Source of the DNA: Minisyncoccota bacterium
GTDB taxonomy: Bacteria; Patescibacteriota; Minisyncoccia; Minisyncoccales; JAQTVQ01
Direction of reading: 5' to 3'
Assembly: GCA_041652155.1 (NCBI GenBank)
Contig: JBAZHV010000001.1
Coordinates: forward strand, 1 to 57,281
Length of the DNA: 57,281 nucleotides
Shown: positions 3,451 to 38,718 of the stretch, piece by piece
Layout of the letters: the number at the start of each line of letters is the position of its first letter
Position numbering within the stretch: position 1 is the first letter of the stretch
The notes under the pieces: generated by a model
Seen by the model: the letters and a program-made list of their open reading frames with translations, nothing else
What the model was told of the DNA's origin: nothing
The model's database searches: none
Program-made: the position numbers and the translations under genes

Positions 3451-4575
3451 ATGTCAAAAGAAATTTCAACGGAGAAAAAAGGCATAAAGATCGCGGTCGC
3501 CGGGGTGGGAAACTGTTTTTCAAGCCTTTTGCAGGGCATCTATTTCTATAAAGACGTGAATGACAACGACGAACTGGTGCCCGGGCTGATGCATAACGTC
3601 ATCGGTTCATATAAAATATCGGACATCAAGGTCGTGGCGGCTTTTGACGTGGACAAGCGCAAGATAGGCAAAGATATTTCCGAAGCCATTTTTGCCGAGC
3701 CCAATTGCACTAAAATATTTTTCAAGGATGTTCCCCAAACAGGAGTAAAAGTCAAAATGGGAGAGGTATTGGACGGAATTGCCGGACATATGAAAGATTA
3801 TCTGGAAGACAAAGCTTTCGCGGCTTCCGGCGAGCCATCGGTTAACGTGGCGGAAGAACTGAAAAGATCCGGAGCGGAGATACTGATAAATTATATGCCG
3901 GTAGGCTCGCAGAAGGCCACTGAATTCTATGCAAATGCCGCTCTGGAGGCCGGTTGCGCTTTTATCAACTGTATGCCCGTGTTTATCGTTTCCAACGAGG
4001 AGTGGGCCGAAAAATTCAAGGCAAAAGGCTTGCCTTGCATAGGCGACGATATAAAATCCCAGATCGGAGCGACCATCGTCCACCGCGCGCTAAGCCATTT
4101 GTTCAGCCAGAGAGGGGTGGCCATAGATAAATCTTACCAGCTCAATTTTGGAGGCAATACGGATTTTTTGAACATGCTTTCCCGCGAAAGGCTGAAGTCA
4201 AAAAAAATATCCAAAACAGAAAGCGTGGAATCGCAATTAAGCAAACGTTTAAGCTACGACAATTTACACATCGGGCCGTCGGATTGGATACCTTTTTTGA
4301 AAGACAATAAGATATGCTTTATCAGGATCGAGGGGCGGAAATTCGGCAACGTGCCGGTCGAGCTTGAGCTAAGGCTGTCGGTCGAGGATTCTCCGAACTC
4401 CGCCGGCTGCGTTATAGACGCCATCAGGATGGCTAAGCTGGCTCTGGACCGCAAAGTCGGCGGAGCTTTGATATCTCCCTCCTCTTACTTTATGAAACAC
4501 CCCCCGCAGCAGTTTACGGACGAAAGATGCAGAGAGATAGTAGAGGAGTTTATTGCCGGAAAAAGACAAGTCTAA
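3451..4575 (+). CDS. ino1: myo-inositol-1-phosphate synthase (archaeal/bacterial short type)
   Basis: 374-aa ORF. N-terminal Rossmann motif IKIAVAGVGNCFSSLLQGIYFY and the conserved GDDIKSQIGATIVHR and NFGGNTDF blocks. Confidence 0.85.
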   Translation: MSKEISTEKKGIKIAVAGVGNCFSSLLQGIYFYKDVNDNDELVPGLMHNVIGSYKISDIKVVAAFDVDKRKIGKDISEAIFAEPNCTKIFFKDVPQTGVKVKMGEVLDGIAGHMKDYLEDKAFAASGEPSVNVAEELKRSGAEILINYMPVGSQKATEFYANAALEAGCAFINCMPVFIVSNEEWAEKFKAKGLPCIGDDIKSQIGATIVHRALSHLFSQRGVAIDKSYQLNFGGNTDFLNMLSRERLKSKKISKTESVESQLSKRLSYDNLHIGPSDWIPFLKDNKICFIRIEGRKFGNVPVELELRLSVEDSPNSAGCVIDAIRMAKLALDRKVGGALISPSSYFMKHPPQQFTDERCREIVEEFIAGKRQV

Positions 4576-4719: not shown

Positions 4720-4920
4720 TTAAACCATAGAAAAACAGCTTTTTTCGGGTTGGATGGAGCGGGTGATTGGCAGATGGAAAGATATTAATTTTCAAACCTC
4801 CAATTTTTCCTGCCTGCAGGGGAGTTTAAAAATTGAAAATTATCAGCCTGGAGTTCGGCTGTTTTAAGTTTTAAACCGTTGCTTTACATTTTTCGCTTTA
4901 AGTTTTACGCTTATTTATAT

Positions 4921-5511
4921 ATGTTGGATACTCGCAGAGAATCGTTCAGAGGATTGGAAAAGGCGGTCGCTAAGATTTTTTCACGGTTGCCGGTAACTCC
5001 GAACCAGTACAGTTTCAGCTCTGTCCTTTTTGCTTTGGTTTGTTTATATTTTTTAATAAAGCAAGCTGTTGCTTGGGCGATCGTATTTTTTTTACTGGCG
5101 GCTTTTATGGATTTTGTCGACGGGGGAGTGGCCCGTTATAAAAATTTGTCCACAAAAAAAGGCGCCTATCTGGACACCATTTTCGACCGTTACGTGGAAG
5201 GGATAACGATCATTGGGTTTTTGTTTCTGCCTCTGCCTCAAATATTTTTGCCAAACTATATTTTGATATCGCTGGTTCTTTTCGGATCGATGATGACGAC
5301 CTATGCCAAATCGGCGGCGAAAGAAAAAGAGCTGACGTCCGTAGAACTGAAAGGAGGATTAATGTCCCGGGGCGAAAGGGCGATACTCTATTTTTTAATA
5401 ATGCTTTCGGCTATTTTCTGTTCGGAAACAGCGGTTTGGATATTGATGGCGATGGCATTGCTTGCCAATATGACCGCCATTCAAAGGATATTCTCCGCGG
5501 TGAAAAACTGA
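4921..5511 (+). CDS. CDP-alcohol phosphatidyltransferase, phosphatidyl-/archaetidyl-inositol-phosphate synthase-like
   Basis: CDP-alcohol transferase signature DFVDGGVARY...GAYLDTIFDRY, about 196 aa and multi-TM. Start moved to the ATG at 4921. Lies immediately downstream of ino1. Confidence 0.7.
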   Translation: MLDTRRESFRGLEKAVAKIFSRLPVTPNQYSFSSVLFALVCLYFLIKQAVAWAIVFFLLAAFMDFVDGGVARYKNLSTKKGAYLDTIFDRYVEGITIIGFLFLPLPQIFLPNYILISLVLFGSMMTTYAKSAAKEKELTSVELKGGLMSRGERAILYFLIMLSAIFCSETAVWILMAMALLANMTAIQRIFSAVKN

Positions 5512-6809: not shown

Positions 6810-8231
6810 TTAGACATCGTAGTAAAGCATGAATTCGGCAGAGCTTGGCCTGGTTCTTATGACGTCATACTCGGCAGTTCTCTTGTAGTCTATCCAAGTA
6901 TTTATCAGGCCCTTGGTAAAGACTCCGTCTCTGGTCAAAAATTCATTGTCTTTTTCCAAAGCGGCCAAACTTTTATCCAATGAGTCCGGGACCTGGGGAA
7001 GTTTATCACTGGCGCCCATTTTGTAAATGTTCCCGTCGATCGGGTCCAGAGGTTTGATCTTGTTCTTTATTCCGTCCAAACCGGCTAACAACATTGCGGA
7101 GAATACGAGATAAGGATTGGCCGAAGGATCCGGCGGGCGGAACTCGATCCTTTTGGATGCAGGACTTGTGGAATAGTTTGGCACCCTGATAGCCGCGGAA
7201 CGGTTTCTGTTGGAATAGACAAGATTCACCGGCGCTTCAAAACCCGGAACCAGTCTTTTGTAAGAATTGGTGGTCGGAGCGGCAAAAGCCAGAATGGCCG
7301 GCGCGTGCTTCAAAAGCCCGCCGATAAAATAGACGGCCAGCTCGCTTAGATTGGCGTAGCCCGACGCGCTGTGGAATAAAGGCGTTCCGTTCTTCCAGAG
7401 AGAAACGTGGACGTGCATGCCCGAACCGTTGTCTCCCCAGATCGGTTTAGGCATAAAAGTAGCGGTTTTGCCGTTGCGAAAAGCGACATTCTTGACCGCG
7501 TATTTGAATTTCATCACATTGTCGGCGATCTTTTTGAGAGTATCGTATTTGATATCTATCTCGGCCTGGCCTCCGGTGGAAACTTCGTGATGCTCTTTCT
7601 CGACTTCTATCCCAAGCTTTTCCATTTCAAAAACCATCTCGCGCCTGATATCCGCAAGCTGATCGGCCGGCGGAACTGGAAAGTATCCTTCTTTATTTCT
7701 TATCTTATAGCCCGAGCCGTTGCCGGGAATGTCTTTATCTTCTTTGGCGTTCCAATTGGCTTCAACGGATCTTATCTCGTGAAAAGAAAAGTTTTGATCG
7801 GCGCCGAAATTTACTTTATCAAAAATGAAAAATTCAGCTTCCGGCCCGAAGTAAGCTTTGTCGGCCACCCCGCTTTTAGTCAGCAGCTCTTCGGCTTTCC
7901 GGGCGACAAATCTCGGATCGTTCTCAAAAGGCGTTTTTTTGGCTCCAGGTTCATAGATATCGCAGATGAAGCTGCCCAGCGGAAACTTGGAAAAAGGATC
8001 GACAGCGAAAGTTTCCAGATCGGGGACCAAAAGCATATCGCTTTCCTGTATTTCTTTGAATCCGCGGATGCTGGAACCGTCAAAACCGAGACCTTCTTCG
8101 AGAACCTTTTTGTCCAAGGCGGAGAGGGGAACGGTAAAGTGCTGCCAAGTTCCCGGCAGATCGCAAAACTTAAAATCAACTAATTTTATGCCGTGTTTTT
8201 CACAAGTCTCAATTATTTCTTCGTAAACCAT
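6810..8231 (-). CDS. glnA: glutamine synthetase type I
   Basis: Conserved GS blocks FDGSSI, YFGPEAEFF, KPIWGDNGSGMHVHVSLW, NSYKRLVPGFEAP and SNRNRSAAIRVP. Start moved to the ATG at 8231 (MVYEEI...), since the upstream part of the ORF covers leader structure. Confidence 0.9.
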   Translation of the reverse strand: MVYEEIIETCEKHGIKLVDFKFCDLPGTWQHFTVPLSALDKKVLEEGLGFDGSSIRGFKEIQESDMLLVPDLETFAVDPFSKFPLGSFICDIYEPGAKKTPFENDPRFVARKAEELLTKSGVADKAYFGPEAEFFIFDKVNFGADQNFSFHEIRSVEANWNAKEDKDIPGNGSGYKIRNKEGYFPVPPADQLADIRREMVFEMEKLGIEVEKEHHEVSTGGQAEIDIKYDTLKKIADNVMKFKYAVKNVAFRNGKTATFMPKPIWGDNGSGMHVHVSLWKNGTPLFHSASGYANLSELAVYFIGGLLKHAPAILAFAAPTTNSYKRLVPGFEAPVNLVYSNRNRSAAIRVPNYSTSPASKRIEFRPPDPSANPYLVFSAMLLAGLDGIKNKIKPLDPIDGNIYKMGASDKLPQVPDSLDKSLAALEKDNEFLTRDGVFTKGLINTWIDYKRTAEYDVIRTRPSSAEFMLYYDV

Positions 8232-8302
8232 AATTTGGAATGTCGATATTCGAAAGTCGAGGGCCGTAACGACATTCGACCTTCTACGCTCGACACTCAA
8301 TT

Positions 8303-8428: not shown

Positions 8429-8554
8429 AAAGTGTAAAGCGAAAAACTAAAAATAACAGTTTAAAGCTTAAACTTGCTTGTTTTCTCCCGGTAATCGGCA
8501 GAAAGATCATTTTAAATTTTACGCTGTTATTTTTAGTTTTTCGCTTTGCGTTTT
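8429..8554. repeat. 31-bp inverted repeat with a 64-nt loop immediately after the ANTAR gene stop
   Basis: 8429-8459 pairs with 8524-8554 (core CGAAAAACTAAAAATAACAG / CTGTTATTTTTAGTTTTTCG). The three non-Watson-Crick positions are G-U on the plus-strand RNA and A-C on the minus. Confidence 0.6.
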
Positions 8555-9266
8555 ACACTCTCTTGAAGTCGCTCGAAATTATTACTGCGCTGGCGACTTC
8601 TTTGATGGATATTCTTTTGTCCATGCTTTTTTTATGCAAAAGCTTGTGGGCTTCTTCTTCGGAAATGTTAAGGTCTTTCATTAAAATGCCCTTGGCTTTC
8701 TCGATCAGTTTGCGGGTTTCCAAAGCTTCTTTTAAAGCTTCTTTCTCGCTGAAAAGCATGGCGTTTTCGATGGCTCCGCCGGTTGCCTGGGCGACAAGTT
8801 CGAACAGGGCTATTTCCGTCTCCGAATATTTGCGCGGCTTTGAATGCTGGACGTTTATCACGCCCAGAACTTTATCGCGATAGATGATCGGAACGGAAAG
8901 GATTCCTTCGAATTTGTCTTCGGGCAAACTGTTAAAAAATTTAAAGCGTTCGTCCTCGTAGGCTTTTTTGGCGATTGCTACGGTTTTTTGTTTTCGGGCC
9001 ACCCAGCCCGTGATCCCTTCGCCGATCTTCATTTTGATGGCACCGATCTCCAGCGGTTTGGGGTTTAAAGAAGCTCTCAAGGTAAGATCTTCGCCGTCGG
9101 TCAAGTATAAAAAGCAAGAATCCGCTTTTGTCACAGAGCTGACTGTTTTTACTATGCGGCTCAATACTTCTTTCAGATCAAGATTATAACTGATGGTCTG
9201 GATTATCTGGCGCAGAAGATCAAGTTCGTTCTCTTTTTTCAATTTGCCGTTTTTCTTTTTTTCCAT
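8553..9266 (-). CDS. GAF-ANTAR RNA-binding antitermination regulator
   Basis: N-terminal GAF (DSCFLYL...GEGITGWVA...LSVPII...LGVINV) and C-terminal ANTAR (ETRKLIEKAKGILMKDLNISEEEAHKLLHKKSMDKRISIKEVA). Confidence 0.85.
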   Translation of the reverse strand: MEKKKNGKLKKENELDLLRQIIQTISYNLDLKEVLSRIVKTVSSVTKADSCFLYLTDGEDLTLRASLNPKPLEIGAIKMKIGEGITGWVARKQKTVAIAKKAYEDERFKFFNSLPEDKFEGILSVPIIYRDKVLGVINVQHSKPRKYSETEIALFELVAQATGGAIENAMLFSEKEALKEALETRKLIEKAKGILMKDLNISEEEAHKLLHKKSMDKRISIKEVASAVIISSDFKRV

Positions 9267-18120: not shown

Positions 18121-18214
18121 AAATTCAGAGCAGAACAAAAGCAAAAATCCTCCCATCAGAGGATTTTTGCTTGGCTATTATCGAATTTTCAATAATTTGG
18201 TATTATGCAGCCAT

Positions 18215-18532
18215 ATGCTGCAAACTAAAAAATTTCAAAAAAGAATAGAGGATTTCATCTGCGATAGGTGCGGGACCGTCACCAGGGGATCGGACTGCAA
18301 CCATTGTTCCAAGTGCCTTTGGTCAAAACACGTTGATATCAACCCCGGAGACCGCCAATCGACTTGCGGGGGCCTGCTGGAGCCTGTAGCGGCCGAGGTG
18401 AGGAAAAGCGGCCGGGAATACGTTATTCACTATGTATGCCAAAAATGCGGGGATAAGAGCAGGGCAAGAGCGGCAAAAGAAGACAGCTCCGAAGAGCTTA
18501 TAAAATTGATCAACAAACCGATCACGGACTGA
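18215..18532 (+). CDS. RNHCP-domain zinc-ribbon protein
   Basis: FICDRCG...GSDCNHCSKCLWSKHVD...CGG...YVCQKCG matches the RNHCP domain pattern. Start placed at the ATG at 18215. Confidence 0.6.
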   Translation: MLQTKKFQKRIEDFICDRCGTVTRGSDCNHCSKCLWSKHVDINPGDRQSTCGGLLEPVAAEVRKSGREYVIHYVCQKCGDKSRARAAKEDSSEELIKLINKPITD

Positions 18533-18674
18533 CAACTAATCCACAATTGACAAGGACGGAAAAAAGTAAGAAAGTATACCCAATATGAATCGTCCGGAAC
18601 CATTGGAAAACGCGTTCAACCAATTCGAATTCGAGAGAATGATAATTTTAAATTTCGTAAAAAAATAACAAGGA

Positions 18675-18697
18675 CTCCGCCAACGGCGGAGTTTTTT
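18675..18697 (+). terminator. intrinsic terminator 20 nt before the methyltransferase operon
   Basis: CTCCGCC AAC GGCGGAG TTTTTT. Confidence 0.7.
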
Positions 18698-18718
18698 GTT
18701 GGAGGAGATAAAGGATAT

Positions 18719-19423
18719 ATGCTTGATTCGAAATTCTGGGCAAAATATTTTAAGGTTTATGATGTTCTAAATTCGTTGATCACTTACCAAGAGCTGCTAG
18801 ACGCTATTTGCGACGAACTCGATATTAAAAAAGGTGAAAAAATATTAGAAGCTGGCTGCGGAACTGGAAATTTAGCGTTGAAAATGAAAGAACGAGGAGC
18901 CGACGTGACAGGAATAGACAATTGCCAAGAAGCTTTAGGCATCTATCTTGAAAAAGATCCGAGCGCCAAGGTATTTTTAGCCGATTTGAAAGAGAAATTA
19001 CCTTTTCCAGATAACTATTTTAATAAAATAGCGTCGAACAATACTTTATACGCTCTCTCTGGAGAAAAACAGTTAAAAACGATGGAAGAATTATATAGGA
19101 TATTAAAAAAAGAAGGACAGATATTGATTTCAAATCCGTTAAAAAATAGTCGGCCGGTCTATATCTATTTTGATGAGATAGCAAAGGGCTGTAAAAGGAA
19201 TGGGTTCATTCGAACCATGATAAGAAGTCTAAAAATGATAAAGCCAACCGTTGAATTAATCTATTATAACAGCCTGATTGTTAAAGAGGCTAAAAATGGT
19301 TATTTTAATTTTTTCGAAATAGGCGACCAAAAAAAAATGTTAGAACGCGCCAACTTTAGAAATATATCCAATAATAAAATTGTTTACTCTGGCCAGGCTG
19401 TTCTAAACAAAGCAGCGAAATAG
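18719..19423 (+). CDS. class I SAM-dependent methyltransferase
   Basis: Motif I ILEAGCGTGNLALKM, acidic loop VTGIDN and motif post-II LKKEGQILISNP. SD GGAGGAG upstream. Confidence 0.8.
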   Translation: MLDSKFWAKYFKVYDVLNSLITYQELLDAICDELDIKKGEKILEAGCGTGNLALKMKERGADVTGIDNCQEALGIYLEKDPSAKVFLADLKEKLPFPDNYFNKIASNNTLYALSGEKQLKTMEELYRILKKEGQILISNPLKNSRPVYIYFDEIAKGCKRNGFIRTMIRSLKMIKPTVELIYYNSLIVKEAKNGYFNFFEIGDQKKMLERANFRNISNNKIVYSGQAVLNKAAK

Positions 19424-19426
19424 AAT

Positions 19427-20074
19427 ATGATAGGAAAAATAAATTTACCATTTTTTATAAAATCATTCTTAATAAATCTCTTGTTATTAAGAGAACATAT
19501 AGAAATAAAAATTGCCAAAACTGAAGAAGAAAAGAATAAAGCGATATCTTTAGTTTTTGATATTTATAAAAAAGAGGGGTACATTGATTTAAATTTTTTT
19601 AACGATTTTAATGATTTCAAAGATGAATTTGACGATAATTCTGTATATTTTTTAGCATTTTTAAAAAATAATTTGATTGGAGCTCTTAGGATTATTCTCC
19701 CGTCTAAAATCGGATTTCCCTCTGAAAAATTTTTTAATTATGTAAGCTTACCGGTTGATAAAAAAGACGTAGCTGAAATATCTAGACTAGCGATATTGAA
19801 TAATCATAGAAAAAATATAATAACATTGGGATTGTTTAAAAAATGCCTTGATTATAGTAAGAATAAAGGGTTAAAATATTGGTGCATGGTTGTGCCAGAA
19901 AAACTAAAATCTCATTTTGAAAAATTTAAGATAAAATTTTATAAATTTAATCTAGACGAATCAAAAAATCAGAATCAGGAAGCCATAAGACCTCATAGAT
20001 TCTATTTCGAGAAAAACCAACCAAAACTTTATTTGATAGAGTTAAGAGAAATCGAAACATATTTTATCCTATGA
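19427..20074 (+). CDS. GNAT-fold N-acyltransferase resembling N-acyl amino acid synthases (FeeM/OlsB/LuxI-like)
   Basis: IKIAKTEEEKNKAISLVFDIYKKEGYI, GALRIILPS...FPSEKFF, AEISRLAILNNHR, and LKYWCMVVPEKLKSHFEKFKI. Layout as in Acetyltransf_5 or exosortase-associated acyltransferases. Starts 3 nt after the methyltransferase stop and has an ATGA overlap with the kinase. Confidence 0.5.
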   Translation: MIGKINLPFFIKSFLINLLLLREHIEIKIAKTEEEKNKAISLVFDIYKKEGYIDLNFFNDFNDFKDEFDDNSVYFLAFLKNNLIGALRIILPSKIGFPSEKFFNYVSLPVDKKDVAEISRLAILNNHRKNIITLGLFKKCLDYSKNKGLKYWCMVVPEKLKSHFEKFKIKFYKFNLDESKNQNQEAIRPHRFYFEKNQPKLYLIELREIETYFIL

Positions 20075-21636
20075 ATTCAATTTTTTCTTTCGATAGCTTA
20101 CTTGTTCCTATTCTAATCTTTAATTTAGGGCTGGGACTTTTTGTATATCTAACCAATAAAAGTGATCTCAAAAATAATTTATTTTTGGGATTGGCGACAG
20201 GGACGAGCCTTTGGATTGGAGGGTTATTACTTATAGGGTTGACTTCTTATGAAATCGGGGGGCGTCTTTCTTTTTCTGGGGCCTTAATTTCCGCATGGTT
20301 TTTTCTTCTTTTTACTTTCCAATTTCCAAAACCACTACACTCTGGAAAAAATAATATATTCAAAAAATTAGGATGGTTTGTGACCGTAGCTATCGTTATC
20401 CTTTCTCTACTCACACCGCTCGTTGTCAAAAAAGAATTTTCTGAAGAAACAACTTTTGGGGTTAGTGGAGAATTTGGGGTTTTATATCCGATTTGGAGCA
20501 TCTATTTTATTTTTTTAATGGGCTACGGATTGGTCAACTTGTTTAAGGAGCTGATAACTCCTAGGGAAAACAAGTTAGAAAAAAAACAGCTAAAATATTT
20601 TTTTTTAGGGGCTTCGTCGACAATTTTGATAACGGCAACGACTAATCTAATTCTTCCTTTATTTGGACTTTATCAATATTCAAAATTAGGACCGCTTGGA
20701 ACTATTTTTTTGATTTCATTTACTGGTCTTGCCATCCTTCGTTATCACCTTTTTGAAATAAAAGTTATTTTGACGGAGATTTTGGTCGCATTGATGGGCA
20801 TTACCCTGATGATTCTTATCTTCTTTATGCCCAGCGTACCTCTTAGATTATTAACCGGATCAATTTTGTTCCTGTTTTTGATCTTTGGATTTTTATTGAT
20901 CAAAGCTACCCACGAAGAAGTCAAAAGGAAGGAGGAGGCTGAAAGGCTTCTTAAGGCTAAGTCGGAATTTCTTTCCATTGCTTCACACCAATTGAGAACC
21001 CCTTTAACCGCTATAGCCGGATATATCTCAATGTTAAAAGAAGGGGACTATGGGCGGATACCGGAGGAAGGTGATAAAGCCATCAACAAGGTCTATGATT
21101 CTTCCCAAAGAATGATCAAACTGGTCAATGACTTTTTGAACGTTTCCAGGGTGGAAACGGGAAGAGTAGTCTTAAATCTATCGCGCGTATCCCTGGACGA
21201 AATTATCCTGCAAATTATTGCCGAAACCGAATTGAAAGTAAAACAAAAAGGGCTCTTCATAAAATGGAACAAGCCTTCGCTGGAACCGATAGTGAACGTT
21301 GATCCTGAAAAAATAAAAGAAGCAATAAGCAATATAGTGGACAATGCTATCCACTATACCGACCAAGGAGGGATAACTATTTCCGCTAAAATAGATCCCG
21401 TAAAAACAACTCTTATGATCTCCGACACGGGCGCTGGTATGGACCGTATTGAAATAGCTAAAATATTTGAAAGCTTTTCCCGCGGTTCCGCAGGGAACAA
21501 ACTCTACACTCAAGGGTCGGGCCTTGGACTGTACATAGCCAAAAAATTCGTCGAACTGCACGGCGGAAGAATATGGGTCGAATCGCAAGGGAAAGGCACA
21601 GGATCGGCTTTCTATATAGAATTGTCAAACAGATAA
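20071..21636 (+). CDS. sensor histidine kinase with an N-terminal 7TM sensing domain
   Basis: About 7 TM helices ending in AILRYHLFEIKVILTE. H-box SIASHQLRTPL, N-box DNAIHYT, G1 DTGAGM and G2 GSGLGLYIAK. Confidence 0.9.
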   Translation: MNSIFSFDSLLVPILIFNLGLGLFVYLTNKSDLKNNLFLGLATGTSLWIGGLLLIGLTSYEIGGRLSFSGALISAWFFLLFTFQFPKPLHSGKNNIFKKLGWFVTVAIVILSLLTPLVVKKEFSEETTFGVSGEFGVLYPIWSIYFIFLMGYGLVNLFKELITPRENKLEKKQLKYFFLGASSTILITATTNLILPLFGLYQYSKLGPLGTIFLISFTGLAILRYHLFEIKVILTEILVALMGITLMILIFFMPSVPLRLLTGSILFLFLIFGFLLIKATHEEVKRKEEAERLLKAKSEFLSIASHQLRTPLTAIAGYISMLKEGDYGRIPEEGDKAINKVYDSSQRMIKLVNDFLNVSRVETGRVVLNLSRVSLDEIILQIIAETELKVKQKGLFIKWNKPSLEPIVNVDPEKIKEAISNIVDNAIHYTDQGGITISAKIDPVKTTLMISDTGAGMDRIEIAKIFESFSRGSAGNKLYTQGSGLGLYIAKKFVELHGGRIWVESQGKGTGSAFYIELSNR

Positions 21637-21655: not shown

Positions 21656-22681
21656 ATGGATTTTTTAACAATTTCTACCTCCATCTTCATTGTCTTCACT
21701 CTATTCATAGGATTTTCCGTCTATTTTAGCAGGAAAAACAAACTTTCACTGACTTTTCTTTTTTTCTGCTTATCAACAGTTATTTGGATGATTGGCGTTC
21801 TGTTAGCTAACACTAGCCACGCGTCTTATATCTCCGGTAATTTCGGCTTTAGATTGTCGTTCTTTGGGATTTCATTATTATCCACGATTTTCATATATTT
21901 TGTTCAGATTTTTCCGGAAGAAAAACATCTTCCCAGAACAATAAATATATTGTTTATAGGATTATTAGTTATTATAGGATCGCTATCTATTTCAACTAAT
22001 TTGATAGCAGATGAGATAACTTATCTGAACGGCGCGATAGTTGATAAAAGATATGGTCCTTTATATCCTTTTTTTTCGCTTCTTCTGCTCTCTTCGCTCG
22101 CTTTGTCTATATTTTTTTCAGCGTTTAAATATAAATCCTTGGAAAATGCGATAAAAAAACAACAAGCTAAATACTTTTTGACTGGAATTTTTTTATCATT
22201 CATGTTCACCATATCTACCAATTTAATATCTCCATTATTTAAATTGGGATCATATAAAATCCCTCAATATGGACCATTTGGCTTCATATTTTTTATAGTT
22301 TTTTCTGCTTTTGCGATTCTCAAATACCGCCTTTTTGACATCAAAGTCATTATGACTGAAATATTGGTGGTGATCATGGGAATGGTTTTACTGTTTTTCC
22401 CGTTTTTGATGCCTACAAATACTCATCGAGTGTTGGCCGTTATAGTATTTTTGGCTTTTTGTCTGATCGGCTATCTATTGGTAAGAGCGAATTTAAAAGA
22501 AGTAAAAAATAGCGAACTATTGGAAAACAAAGTGAAAGAAAGGACCGCTGAACTTTCTAAAGCCTACGAAGAACTTAAAATCAGGCAAGAAGAGATCGAG
22601 AGATGGTACAGTCTTACCATCGGGCGCGAGCTGCGCATGGCCGAATTGAAACAAAAAATAAAGGAAATAGAGAAGAAATAG
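21656..22681 (+). CDS. kinase-less 7TM sensor paralog ending in a conserved coiled coil
   Basis: Same 7TM core (AILKYRLFDIKVIMTE) as the kinase. Ends after KERTAELSKAYEELKIRQEEIERWYSLTIGRELRMAELKQKIKEIEKK with no HATPase domain. Confidence 0.75.
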   Translation: MDFLTISTSIFIVFTLFIGFSVYFSRKNKLSLTFLFFCLSTVIWMIGVLLANTSHASYISGNFGFRLSFFGISLLSTIFIYFVQIFPEEKHLPRTINILFIGLLVIIGSLSISTNLIADEITYLNGAIVDKRYGPLYPFFSLLLLSSLALSIFFSAFKYKSLENAIKKQQAKYFLTGIFLSFMFTISTNLISPLFKLGSYKIPQYGPFGFIFFIVFSAFAILKYRLFDIKVIMTEILVVIMGMVLLFFPFLMPTNTHRVLAVIVFLAFCLIGYLLVRANLKEVKNSELLENKVKERTAELSKAYEELKIRQEEIERWYSLTIGRELRMAELKQKIKEIEKK

Positions 22682-24489: not shown

Positions 24490-25509
24490 ATGTCATTTTT
24501 TGCCTTCTCCGGCTTATTCAATTTTATCGTAAGTTTTTTCCTTGGAGCTTTCATTGGCGCGAGGACTAAAAACAGGGAAACTCTGATCTTCAGCCTTTGC
24601 GCTTTTTCGGTGGCTTTTTGGAGCTTCGGATATTATATGTGGCAAGAACAGCAATCTTCCGGTACGGAAGAACTGGCTTTGTCGTGGTGCAGATTTTTGA
24701 TGGCTGGAGCGATTTTCATACCGATCACTTATTTCCATTACATAGTAGCTTTTGTAAATTCGATAAAGAGGCATAAGGCGTATATCTTAACTTTTTATCT
24801 TATCGGCTTGGTTTTTTTATATTTTGATATTTTTACGAATTATTTCATATCCGGAATGGAGCAGCAGGCGATGTTTAGATTTTGGCCGATGGCCGGACCG
24901 TTGTTCTTGCCGTTTCTTATCACTTGGTTCGGATCTATATGCTATGGAGGGTATTTGGCTCTTGGCTATTACAGAAAAACAGATTCCAAAGAAAAAAAGG
25001 AGCAAATCAAGTTTTTAATATTGGGCACGATCATCAGCTATGCCGGAGGAGCGACAAATTATTTTTTGTGGTACGGCATCCCGATATTGCCATACGGCAA
25101 TATTTTAGTGTTCGTTTACGTCGCCATGATAGCTTTTGCCATCCTTAGATACGGCTTGTTCGATGCCAAGATGATTTTGACCGAATTTTTGGTGGGAGTT
25201 ATGGGCTTTGCCCTGATAATCCTCCCGATCGTGATCCCTGAAACGAAATTCAAGATCGCGACCGCTCTCATGTTCGCCTTTTTTTGCTTTATCGGATATA
25301 TGCTGATAAAAACCACTTCCAGAGAGATAAAAGCCAAAGAGCATCTTGAAGAAAGAGTTGCGGAGAGGACTCAAGAATTGCAAACGGCCTATGAAGATAT
25401 AAAAAAACAGAAAGAAGAGCTGGAGAAATGGTATAATCTGACCATCGGCAGGGAATTAAAAATGGCGGAGTTGAAGAAGAAAATAGGGGAGCTGGAGGAG
25501 AAAAAATAA
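24490..25509 (+). CDS. kinase-less 7TM sensor paralog ending in a conserved coiled coil
   Basis: 7TM core AILRYGLFDAKMILTE. C-terminus AERTQELQTAYEDIKKQKEELEKWYNLTIGRELKMAELKKKIGELEEKK. Confidence 0.75.
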   Translation: MSFFAFSGLFNFIVSFFLGAFIGARTKNRETLIFSLCAFSVAFWSFGYYMWQEQQSSGTEELALSWCRFLMAGAIFIPITYFHYIVAFVNSIKRHKAYILTFYLIGLVFLYFDIFTNYFISGMEQQAMFRFWPMAGPLFLPFLITWFGSICYGGYLALGYYRKTDSKEKKEQIKFLILGTIISYAGGATNYFLWYGIPILPYGNILVFVYVAMIAFAILRYGLFDAKMILTEFLVGVMGFALIILPIVIPETKFKIATALMFAFFCFIGYMLIKTTSREIKAKEHLEERVAERTQELQTAYEDIKKQKEELEKWYNLTIGRELKMAELKKKIGELEEKK

Positions 25510-25548: not shown

Positions 25549-25584
25549 GTAAACGTTTACAACAAAAGGGCAATAAACTATAAT
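25546..25584 (+). promoter_or_regulatory. promoter with an 18-bp perfect palindrome over the -35
   Basis: GTTGTAAACGTTTACAAC (25546-25563). TTTACA (25556-25561), 17-nt spacer, TATAAT (25579-25584). Lies 25 nt before the receiver gene. Confidence 0.45.
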
Positions 25585-25608: not shown

Positions 25609-25974
25609 ATGTCCAAAATACTTATCATCGAAGACGAAAAAATCTTATCGGAGATGTATCAGGATAAATTTGAGAAAGAAGGTTTTGAAATCGTTGTGGC
25701 TATGGATACCAAGGAGGGTATGGAGCTTCTCAAGAGCTGGAAGCCGGACCTGGTCCTTTTGGATATCCTTTTGCCCAACGAAAACGGGATCGAATTTTTA
25801 AAAAGAAAAAATTTGGATTCCGAAATATCTTCTTTGCCGGTCATAGTTTTTTCAAACTTTGACGATCCTGATACTAAAGAGGAAACTCTTTCTTTGGGCG
25901 TGAAAGAATATTTGATAAAATCGAACCACGACCCGAAAGAAATAGTCGCCGTATTAAGAAAACACACTAGATAG
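25609..25974 (+). CDS. single-domain response regulator receiver (CheY-like)
   Basis: IIEDE acidic pocket, phospho-acceptor context DLVLLDILLP, and VFSN...K in LIKS. No output domain. Confidence 0.9.
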   Translation: MSKILIIEDEKILSEMYQDKFEKEGFEIVVAMDTKEGMELLKSWKPDLVLLDILLPNENGIEFLKRKNLDSEISSLPVIVFSNFDDPDTKEETLSLGVKEYLIKSNHDPKEIVAVLRKHTR

Positions 25975-37125: not shown

Positions 37126-37308
37126 CGGATAAGAGACAAAGAAAACCTTGAACAAAAGGTTCAGGAGCGTACAAAGGAGTTGCAAGGCGCCTACGATAAC
37201 ATAAAGAGCCAGAAAAACGAGCTGGAGCGCTGGTATAATCTGACCATTGGCAGAGAGTTAAAAATGGCCGAGCTTAAAGACAAGATCAAATATCTCGAGC
37301 AAAAATAA
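37126..37308 (+). pseudogene. orphan C-terminal fragment of a 7TM/coiled-coil sensor paralog
   Basis: In-frame translation LEQKVQERTKELQGAYDNIKSQKNELERWYNLTIGRELKMAELKDKIKYLEQK* matches the tails of 21656..22681 and 24490..25509. A stop codon lies immediately upstream and no start or TM region is present. Confidence 0.6.
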
Positions 37309-37779: not shown

Positions 37780-38718
37780 ATGCTAGATCACCTCGAAGAT
37801 TTCCTTCTTCACATACAAACCAATAACTATTCGCCCGAAACGCTGTATAACTACGAGCGTGATTTAAGAACTTTCGAAAATTTCCTCGATAGCGATCTCA
37901 AAATGCCTTTCGAGCAGGTAAACAAAAAAAGTATCGAGCAATATAAGGCTTATTTGGTATCCAGAGACCGTAAAACATCGCTGAAAAAGGATCCTGTGAA
38001 GAATTTATCAGCCGGTTCCATAAACCGCACGCTGTCCAGCCTTAGAGGTTTTTTGAAGTATCTTATAAAAATGGATCACAAGGCGCCCGTAGCGCCCGAT
38101 GTGATAGAGATGCTCAAGACCGAAAAAAAACACGGCCGGGTCGGGGAATTCGACGAAATAGTAAAACTCATCGAGTCCCCTTTAACTTTGGAAAAAAATA
38201 AAAAGGTGGGCCTGCGCAACCGCGCGATGCTTGAAATGGTTTTCTCTACCGGTATGAGAATTTCGGAGCTGGTAAGCATAAAAACCGTCCAGATAGACAA
38301 AACCGGCCGCATATTCATCCGCGGCAAAGGACGCAAGGAAAGGTTCGTTTATTTGACCCCAAGAGCCCACAAATGGATCCAGACGTACATACAGGAGGCC
38401 CGAGGCGATGATCCGTCCCCTTATTTGTTCATTCCCGCCAAAGGCAGGAGTATCAATAAGAAAGATAAGAAAGTTTCCACCAACTACTTGCAGGAAAGGA
38501 TCAAGCGCTACCGCGAGCTTCTGGGCTTTAATATCCCGACGTCCTGCCACTCGATCAGGCACGCTTTTGCCACCTATTTGGCCGAAAATGGGGCCAATCC
38601 GGCAGCAATACAAATACTGCTCGGCCACGAGTCATTGGACACCACCACGCGCTACGTACACGCTTCAGACCGCTACGCCGAAAAGAGCCACCACGATTTC
38701 CACCCATTAAAAGACTAG
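37780..38718 (+). CDS. tyrosine recombinase (XerC/XerD/integrase family)
   Basis: SAM-like N-domain. Catalytic region LRNRAMLEMVFSTGMRISEL, HSIRHAFATYL and LLGHESLDTTTRYVH. Confidence 0.85.
   Translation: MLDHLEDFLLHIQTNNYSPETLYNYERDLRTFENFLDSDLKMPFEQVNKKSIEQYKAYLVSRDRKTSLKKDPVKNLSAGSINRTLSSLRGFLKYLIKMDHKAPVAPDVIEMLKTEKKHGRVGEFDEIVKLIESPLTLEKNKKVGLRNRAMLEMVFSTGMRISELVSIKTVQIDKTGRIFIRGKGRKERFVYLTPRAHKWIQTYIQEARGDDPSPYLFIPAKGRSINKKDKKVSTNYLQERIKRYRELLGFNIPTSCHSIRHAFATYLAENGANPAAIQILLGHESLDTTTRYVHASDRYAEKSHHDFHPLKD

Follow-up and report, generated by a model that had tools for sequence, protein, structure and literature searches.

In the LuxM/LuxN, AinS/AinR and CqsA/CqsS systems the synthase is encoded beside a polytopic membrane kinase that binds a hydrophobic autoinducer. 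LuxN is reported to have nine helices, with its N-terminus outside (N-out). The agr and comQXP signal-receptor cassettes use peptide signals and have a hypervariable centre. For the Candidate Phyla Radiation (CPR), the searched text and tables of Bernard et al. 2020 (PMC7567580) report 36 LuxI homologues, of which 18 adjoin a putative sensory kinase. According to the same text and tables these pairs occur in Giovannonibacteria, WWE3, Kerfeldbacteria and others, and were proposed as candidate complete quorum-sensing systems. One of the CPR kinases was matched there by a profile of the CqsS sensory domain. The locus described here lies in a 57,281-nucleotide stretch from a Minisyncoccota bacterium (assembly GCA_041652155.1, contig JBAZHV010000001.1, positions 1 to 57,281, forward strand), referred to as the window. 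Its three open reading frames (ORFs) encode a class I S-adenosylmethionine (SAM)-dependent methyltransferase (234 aa), a putative N-acyltransferase of the GNAT fold (215 aa) and a membrane histidine kinase (521 aa, 20071-21636), and are called the module below (Table 1). The module resembles the pairs in Table S4 of Bernard et al. 2020 in its CPR origin and in having a GNAT/LuxI-like gene followed by a kinase gene on the same strand and in the same order. The pairs and the module probably belong to the same families. The GNAT-kinase pairing is partly anticipated by that work. A methyltransferase is not mentioned in its searched text and tables, and a PlsC fusion, a response regulator and mosaic evolution were not seen in them.

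The best-supported reading of the module is a make-and-sense circuit for a methylated N-acyl amine. This reading is tentative and was given a probability of about 0.45. It is favored because the kinase is invariably coupled to the GNAT, because synthase and sensor have evolved fast together, because the GNAT belongs to a LuxI/FeeM-type family, and because there are precedents for a synthase paired with a membrane kinase. The protein families and folds, the tight coupling of the genes, the conservation of that coupling and the rapid evolution that synthase and sensor share were observed directly. From these we infer a product, its role as kinase ligand, an acyl donor and an output. The GNAT would acylate an amine with a fatty acyl group taken from an activated donor; the amine may be an amino acid or, as in homoserine-lactone synthesis, SAM. 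Since these organisms reportedly do not synthesize lipids of their own, the donor is more likely to be acyl-CoA. The methyltransferase would methylate the substrate or the product. The hydrophobic product would then partition into the membrane and be bound by the membrane domain of the kinase, altering the phosphorylation of a receiver protein. The receiver would act by protein-protein contact, as it is without a DNA-binding domain.

The tight spacing reported in an earlier note on this DNA was read directly in the sequence. The methyltransferase stop codon (TAG, 19421-19423) lies 3 nt upstream of the GNAT start codon (AAT, then ATG at 19427). The GNAT stop codon (TGA, 20072-20074) overlaps the kinase start codon (ATG, 20071-20073) as ATGA. 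Related loci, numbered with the prefix L, were collected with two anchors. The GNAT-anchored loci were L011 (72% identity), L001 (55%), L018 (44%), L019, L015 (35%), L020, L016 (32%) and L017 (28%). The methyltransferase-anchored loci, from GTDB genomes and long metagenome contigs, were L021-L027 and L101-L103. A seven-transmembrane (7TM) kinase gene followed the GNAT gene in 16 of the 16 independent loci with downstream sequence, with GNAT identities ranging between 72% and about 22%. The methyltransferase gene was directly upstream of the GNAT gene in seven of the eight GNAT-anchored loci. GNAT and kinase genes were present in all but one (L025) of the nine informative methyltransferase-anchored loci. 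The gene order in L027 is GNAT, methyltransferase, kinase. At the GNAT-kinase junction the genes overlap by 4 nt in L001, L011, L016 and L018 and by 1 nt in L015, and are 3 nt apart in L017 and L020. Since this tight junction recurs in relatives, the arrangement is not a chance juxtaposition. The synteny check proposed for the trio therefore came out in its favor, the order being kept across very divergent relatives.

The window locus is one copy of a module which is widespread in CPR/Patescibacteria. The orthologous family of the methyltransferase is sharply bounded, with 532 matches at E<=1e-10 and identities of 40-84%, mostly 45-62%. The source names include Gribaldobacteria, Roizmanbacteria, Vogelbacteria, Ryanbacteria, Paceibacterota and 'Patescibacteria group'. 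The earlier expectation that an organism with a reduced genome would not carry such genes did not hold, as the number of methyltransferase relatives and the pairs of Bernard et al. 2020 make the module typical of the group. Locus L022 (JAACEG010000008.1) is labelled as a metagenome-assembled genome of a 'Lysobacteraceae bacterium' and holds a full CPR-type PlsC-methyltransferase-GNAT-kinase module with a methyltransferase 51% identical to that of the window. The label is probably a binning error rather than a sign of a proteobacterial copy. A functional tie to the flanking aminoacyl-tRNA synthetases, of the MprF-like kind, was considered and rejected, as those neighbors are not kept in L001, L015, L016, L022-L027 and L103.

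The GNAT had been proposed to have the layout of an N-acyl synthase, and this was borne out by profile and fold searches. The best Pfam family was FeeM (PF21926; 48 bits against a cut-off of 27, E=1.5e-12, residues 39-160) and not an aminoglycoside or ribosomal-protein acetylase. The best NCBIfam match was TIGR03694 at 60.7 bits, under its cut-off of 111.95. The module GNATs of L022, L023, L024 and L026 score above the cut-offs of both the FeeM and the Autoind_synth models (24.4-39.7 bits against 24 for the latter). On these matches the family would therefore be placed between the N-acyl amino acid synthases and the N-acyl-homoserine lactone (AHL) synthases. The AlphaFold model of the window GNAT, built from a 36-sequence alignment, has a predicted local distance difference test score (pLDDT) of 95.1 and a predicted template modelling score of 0.91. 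Its top Foldseek matches were FeeM (2g0b; 1.2e-9, TM-score 0.60 by query and 0.68 by target) and LasI (1.7e-8), and BjaI, TofI and RpaI matched near 1e-6. The family profile searched against the PDB gave, in order, BjaI (9e-10), RpaI (1.7e-6), MesI, LasI, FeeM (5e-4), TofI and EsaI. The profile was required for this, as the single-sequence search of the PDB returned noise plus a weak BjaI match at E=2. Owing to the strong divergence of the family, word-indexed homologue searches gave only 4, later 13, proteins. When 1.84 billion representatives were searched exhaustively, the relatives numbered 502 at E<=1e-3 and 72 at E<=1e-10, most of them 200-250 aa long. A scan of GTDB genomes seeded with the GNAT alignment matched 391 stretches, none of which encoded a relative; the scan seeded with the methyltransferase worked.

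The motifs named in the earlier note are present in the GNAT as IYKKEGYI (aa 46-53), GALRIILPS (aa 85-93) and AEISRLAI (aa 116-123). Residues conserved across the family are Y47, Y52, D66, D69, R88, S93, E117 and S119. The LuxI signature is, in LasI numbering, R24, F28, W34, D45, D48, R68/70, E101, S103 and R104. The window GNAT keeps D66-x-x-D69, R88 and E117-x-S119-R120, and its GALRIILP and AEISRLAI motifs are the LuxI-family blocks around R68/70 and E101-S103-R104. Tyr47 is found at the position of Phe28. The Trp34 position is not clearly matched; it aligns with Ile53, and Tyr52 lies beside it. The hydrophobic N-terminal helix of the GNAT is conserved. This helix was considered as a membrane anchor and rejected, as its hydropathy is under the transmembrane threshold and the model packs it against the domain. 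The most distant GNAT match of the word-indexed searches, P0004, is a protein of 252 aa with 31% identity whose gene shows translational coupling to that of a B12-binding radical SAM enzyme (L012:6328-8759). The context of that gene (TrmB, a KaiC-like ATPase, V4R) looks archaeal, and it shows a different partnership for the same enzyme superfamily.

The module GNAT is like the LuxI-type AHL synthases, which include the CoA-dependent BjaI and RpaI, in fold, size, profile matches and the D-x-x-D, R and E-x-S-R positions. It differs from them in its conserved N-terminal hydrophobic helix and in its partners, a membrane histidine kinase instead of a LuxR-type receptor and a dedicated methyltransferase. 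FeeM and the N-acyl amino acid synthases provide both the best Pfam family and the best fold match. However, identity to FeeM in the structural alignment is 14-17%, and FeeM is found in a natural-product cluster and not in a two-component system. The PEP-CTERM/exosortase acyltransferases of TIGR03694 matched only below the cut-off, and no exosortase or PEP-CTERM family was found among the window ORFs scanned against Pfam.

The kinase core contains HisKA (67.6 bits) and HATPase_c (85.8 bits) domains. The H, N, G1 and G2 boxes are all there, with the motifs His306, DNAIHYT, DTGAGM and GSGLGL. Hydropathy and the positive-inside rule predict nine helices in the sensor domain, N-out and with the C-terminus inside, as in LuxN for helix number and N-terminal side. 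The earlier note described a kinase with a membrane-embedded 7TM sensor. No match of the window kinase to Pfam HisKA_7TM (PF16927) was found at E<=1. The kinase shares 34% identity (E=6e-38) with the paralogue at 21656-22681, which does match PF16927, and orthologous kinases in L015, L017, L018, L023 and L101-L103 match it directly. By similarity to the neighboring paralogue and these orthologues the window sensor is assigned to the HisKA_7TM type. The 7TM description thus stands through relatives and not by a direct match, with nine helices predicted. The module is like LuxM/LuxN, AinS/AinR and CqsA/CqsS in that the synthase gene adjoins the gene for a kinase with a multi-helix membrane sensor domain, in which the ligand site of the module kinase would also lie. 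It is unlike them in having a LuxI/FeeM-type synthase, a HisKA_7TM sensor, a non-hybrid kinase and a stand-alone receiver. No ligand for HisKA_7TM was found in the papers that mention this family.

The paralogue directly after the kinase has no HisKA or HATPase_c domain and is labelled by NCBI as 'histidine kinase N-terminal 7TM domain-containing protein'. Both 7TM paralogues, each with two additional helices, share a conserved C-terminal coiled coil of ~60 aa with the motif WY.LTIGRELKMAELK. A third copy, of the C-terminal part only (37129-37305), is 59-71% identical over 59 aa and sits in non-coding DNA upstream of an integrase gene (37780-38718). The kinase-less paralogues may be co-receptors or decoys for the kinase. 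Several relatives encode a second histidine kinase, either in tandem after the first or divergent upstream (L016:4225-5841, L103:8068-9687, L027:3484-5151). The second kinase of L016 matches HisKA_7TM and the L027 copy resembles the window 7TM paralogues. Such second kinases would mean one synthase with two receptors. In two clade-B loci the kinases are ~740 aa long (L022:3552-5765, L023:7399-9642), with an extra GAF domain between 7TM sensor and core in L023. The length of the L022 kinase suggests the same extra domain. In L015 (GCA_034680565.1; 6600-9994) the kinase stop codon overlaps the start of a gene whose product is a PilB-like ATPase containing an MshEN domain, and a PilC-like gene comes next. 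This arrangement hints that module output is tied to type IV pili.

The single-domain regulator at 25609-25974 is 50-57% identical to the regulators found after the kinase in L018, L101 and L102. Its acidic pocket and Asp52 are intact and it has no effector or DNA-binding domain. A response regulator gene comes directly after the kinase gene in L001, L018 and L102; in L101 it is found 1 kb beyond the kinase gene. Compared with L018 and L102, kinase and regulator of the window are separated by an insertion of ~3.9 kb, which holds the first 7TM paralogue, a class I lysyl-tRNA synthetase (PF01921) and the second 7TM paralogue. Because the gene order is common to the window, L018 and L102 and the regulators are 50-57% identical, the regulator is likely the cognate partner of the kinase. 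A strong promoter-like site (11/12 matches) is present upstream of the regulator at 25556-25584. Promoter-like sites were no more frequent in the promoter scan than in shuffled sequence (22 vs. 21.2), and no operon promoter is claimed.

The GC content falls to 0.276 at 19-20 kb, compared to 0.429 for the whole window, and is 0.248 in the GNAT gene. The GC content at third codon positions (GC3) is 0.52-0.62 in the upstream RNHCP gene and 0.47-0.56 in flanking genes. It is 0.33-0.35 in the methyltransferase gene and 0.15-0.25 (0.21 overall) in the GNAT gene. In the kinase gene GC3 is 0.22-0.40 up to about nt 20730 (the first ~220 codons) and 0.38-0.53 beyond, in the core. The AT-richness reported earlier is therefore real and sharp. 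Its explanation as acquired DNA was not upheld for the operon as a whole. The window, L018 and L102 have a common gene order, with LigT and MurC upstream and the response regulator, an AspRS-type synthetase, Peptidase_S11 and MraY downstream. This common chromosomal neighborhood means that the locus is ancestral, and a recent horizontal gain of the whole operon was rejected on the same ground. Only the methyltransferase-GNAT-sensor segment looks replaced.

Mean pairwise identity over 13 loci was 49% for the methyltransferase, 41% for the kinase core and 28% for both the GNAT and the sensor domain. The variable center of the module is therefore the synthase plus the sensor of the receptor, between conserved methyltransferase and kinase-core flanks. 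Over the same 13 loci, GNAT and sensor distances were correlated (Pearson 0.43; partial correlation 0.45 given the kinase core; Mantel p about 7e-4). GNAT and kinase-core distances were not (r=0.01), and the value for methyltransferase and kinase core was 0.61. In the first 10 loci the GNAT-sensor correlation was r=0.67, or 0.47-0.81 on leaving out any one locus. Identity of the window to L001 is 62% for the methyltransferase, 56% for the GNAT, 59% for the sensor, 45% for the core and 34% for the regulator. Identity to the syntenic loci L018, L101 and L102 is 53-60, 24-44, 33-42, 51-52 and 50-57%, respectively. Inside the AT-rich block the window is closest to L001 and L011, and its kinase core and regulator are most like those of L018, L101 and L102. 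The GC3 steps at ~18.7 kb and ~20.73 kb coincide with the boundaries of these identity shifts. L001 and L011 are AT-richer, with GC contents of 31 and 28%. These three concordant kinds of evidence, each from a small sample, suggest that the methyltransferase-GNAT-sensor segment was replaced by an allele from an AT-richer relative.

In this pattern the module is like agr (AgrB-AgrD-AgrC) and comQXP, which have a hypervariable synthase and sensor center between conserved flanks and evidence of allele replacement. It is unlike them in that the signals there are peptides and an acyl amine would be expected here, and in that co-variation in the module is moderate, with one exception (L101). A more far-reaching version of the make-and-sense circuit is a native, strain-specific chemical 'dialect' in CPR/Patescibacteria, which are ultra-small symbionts. 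Products would be read directly by nine-helix HisKA_7TM kinases, and cassettes of synthase and sensor domain would be swapped by recombination as in agr/comQXP pherotypes. In this full form the proposal is doubtful.

Several points weigh against the make-and-sense circuit. CPR bacteria reportedly cannot synthesize membrane lipids (bioRxiv 10.1101/465690), which raises the question of where an acyl donor would come from. The methyl acceptor was not narrowed by sequence or fold searches. The co-variation of GNAT and sensor is moderate, with a Spearman coefficient of only 0.26, and L101 combines a clade-B GNAT with a clade-A-like sensor. No match of the window GNAT to Pfam Autoind_synth (PF00765) was found at E<=1. 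The GNAT also has Val43 at the position of LuxI Arg24, which is Arg in most members of the family. A PlsC-family gene (PF01553) adjoins the module in eight loci (L016, L017, L018, L022, L024, L025, L026 and L103). In L026, from a Candidatus Paceibacter sp., PlsC and methyltransferase are fused in one protein of 460 aa (438-1820; PF01553 at residues 26-164, methyltransferase at 263-370), followed by GNAT and kinase. The PlsC adjacency and the fusion fit a diacylated membrane lipid better than a diffusible signal.

These last observations bear on the strongest rival explanation, which is possible and the less probable of the two. It is that the module makes an aminolipid and senses membrane state. 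An OlsB/GlsB-like GNAT would N-acylate an amino acid to a lyso-aminolipid, a PlsC-type OlsA/GlsA-like enzyme, found in many relatives, would attach the second acyl chain, and an OlsG-like methyltransferase would methylate the head group. The kinase would monitor membrane composition instead of a diffusible signal. The logic of the OlsB/OlsA(/OlsG) and GlsB/GlsA pathways is described in PMC12971839. The eight related loci with a PlsC-family O-acyltransferase, an N-acyltransferase of the same superfamily and a methyltransferase are like these pathways. CPR cells must also remodel scavenged lipids, and in L015 the module is closely preceded by genes for an AMP-binding acyl-activating enzyme and an alpha/beta hydrolase. 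However, no PlsC-like gene is present at the locus in the window, L001, L015, L023, L027, L101 and L102, and no homologue was found within the 57-kb window. The invariant partner is the kinase (16/16) and not PlsC. With 24.7 bits the GNAT does pass the cut-off (22.4) of Acetyltransf_5 (PF13444), the OlsB-type domain. This match is marginal, and the GNAT is nearer to FeeM/LuxI models and structures. With its 200-250 aa the family is also shorter than OlsB/GlsB enzymes. Were the GNAT a housekeeping lipid enzyme, it would be surprising for it to evolve faster than any other gene of its operon and to co-vary with a sensor domain.

The methyltransferase bears a weak resemblance to head-group N-methyltransferases, a further point for the same rival. 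It matches Pfam Methyltransf_11, 25, 23 and 31 (E 1e-13 to 1e-16; 60.5 bits for Methyltransf_11) and carries the GxGxG-type motif EAGCGTGN, as class I SAM-dependent methyltransferases do. Its AlphaFold2 model has a pLDDT of 91 and all of its top fold matches are class I methyltransferases. The best PDB sequence matches were phosphoethanolamine N-methyltransferases (1.6e-8), over the SAM-binding core only, and the CMAS model of lipid methyltransferases is matched as well. A relationship of OlsG to phospholipid N-methyltransferases is described in PMC12971839. The fold search, however, placed sugar O-methyltransferases (AtmM, RebM), C-methyltransferases (CysG, BelI, Coq5) and phosphoethanolamine N-methyltransferases almost level. 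Matches in Pfam and NCBIfam were to generic models or to equivalogs far below threshold (UbiE, BioC, CpaM) only. A further point against the aminolipid reading is that the review of aminolipids (PMC12971839) mentions neither a histidine kinase nor a two-component system. In both readings the kinase would read the product of the enzymes in the membrane, and the difference lies in the nature of the product, a signal or a structural lipid. This was the pair of readings in the earlier note. Both were retained and only their relative weights shifted, with the methylated N-acyl signal preferred to the aminolipid.

It is quite unlikely that the GNAT is not a fatty-acyl transferase. It would then acetylate or acylate a protein or a small polar metabolite, and the kinase would be co-regulated with it or have its signalling modulated by it. 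Generic GNATs (SACOL1063, PaiA, GCN5) are among the top fold matches at similar E-values, the Acetyltransf_1 match is 25.3 bits, and the NCBI label is 'GNAT family N-acetyltransferase' only. The best sequence models are nevertheless FeeM, TIGR03694 and, in relatives, Autoind_synth, and the profile search of the PDB puts AHL synthases first. The GNAT has the conserved D-x-x-D, R and E-x-S-R motifs of the LuxI/N-acyl amino acid synthase group, and relatives have acyl-handling neighbors (PlsC-like, AMP-binding).

At the upstream edge of the module, a hairpin (stem-loop 18674-18692, folding energy -12.2 kcal/mol) lies 140 nt past the RNHCP gene and is followed by TTTTTTGTT and then by the ribosome-binding site of the methyltransferase gene (GGAGGAG, 18701-18707). 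The earlier note had suggested that the hairpin and the small ORF before it form a leader. Control of the operon by a leader-peptide attenuator is very improbable: although there is no promoter space between hairpin and ribosome-binding site, so that transcripts entering the operon must cross the hairpin, the Rfam matches to Phe_leader (20.6 bits) and Trp_leader (17.4 bits) are far under the gathering scores of 55 and 41 (E about 0.4-0.5), the fold of the upstream region is unremarkable (z = -1.56), and the 14 related loci showed neither peptide nor hairpin ahead of the module, where several have a TATAAT-like box instead. No peptide or DNA resembling the small ORF was found upstream of the module in related loci, and the leader proposal was dropped. 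The hairpin is adequately and most simply explained as the terminator of the RNHCP gene, marking the edge of the swapped block.

Table 1. Features of the module and its surroundings in the 57,281-nt window.
Feature	Position	Strand	Basis and remarks
RNHCP-domain zinc-ribbon protein	18167-18532		PF12647, 81.6 bits; between valyl-tRNA synthetase gene and module
27-codon ORF, probably not a gene	18585..18668	+	ORF present; no Pfam match
Terminator-like hairpin (8 bp, 6 GC) and T-run	18674..18700	+	At upstream edge of AT-rich block
AT-rich block: methyltransferase, GNAT and most of sensor domain; probable recombined allele	18700..20750	.	GC3 steps and identity shifts
Class I SAM-dependent methyltransferase	18719..19423	+	Dedicated partner of acyltransferase; Pfam, orthologous family, adjacency
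LuxI/FeeM-superfamily N-acyltransferase, GNAT fold	19427..20074	+	PF21926, fold search, family profile
Kinase sensor domain, nine predicted transmembrane helices (HisKA_7TM type plus two)	20071..20925	+	Paralogue/orthologue similarity, hydropathy
Kinase core, HisKA and HATPase_c	20956..21636	+	Pfam; phospho-acceptor His306 codon 20986-20988
Kinase-less HisKA_7TM paralogue with C-terminal coiled coil	21656..22681	+	PF16927, 47 bits; 19 nt after kinase
Second kinase-less HisKA_7TM and coiled-coil paralogue	24490..25509	+	PF16927, 46.7 bits; 31% identity to first paralogue
Single-domain response regulator, probable kinase partner	25609..25974	+	Response_reg, 77.9 bits

The window is a typical CPR/Patescibacteria segment with aminoacyl-tRNA synthetases, a peptidoglycan cluster (Mur ligases, MraY, FtsW, MurG), DnaK/DnaJ and ribosomal proteins. 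The RNHCP gene holds the position taken by the PlsC-like gene in L018. Elsewhere in the window a myo-inositol-1-phosphate synthase gene (3451-4575) adjoins a CDP-alcohol phosphatidyltransferase gene (4879-5511). This pair suggests a pathway for an inositol phospholipid head group in a group reported to be without its own lipid synthesis. A gene for a GAF-ANTAR RNA-binding regulator (8553-9266, minus strand) lies near a glutamine synthetase gene (6810-8300, minus strand).

No experimental work on the module was found in the literature searched. Nor were a dedicated methyltransferase, a PlsC link, a PlsC::methyltransferase fusion or a cognate regulator found there. The HisKA_7TM identity and nine-helix topology of the sensor, and a hypervariable, recombining synthase-sensor center, were likewise not found in that literature. 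CPR bacteria are a large share of bacterial diversity. They are host-attached and almost none are cultured. The module consists of three to five genes, is very widespread in CPR and is amenable to heterologous expression. It could yield a ligand for the orphan HisKA_7TM sensors and could show a LuxI/FeeM-type product in organisms reported to lack their own lipid synthesis. It could also explain why a methyltransferase is a conserved partner, joined in many genomes by a PlsC-type acyltransferase. If the aminolipid explanation were true, there would be amino-acid lipids, together with their sensor, in bacteria thought to rely on scavenged lipids. If the 'dialect' proposal were true, the module would provide the first ligand class for HisKA_7TM and the first autoinducer circuit of episymbiotic bacteria.

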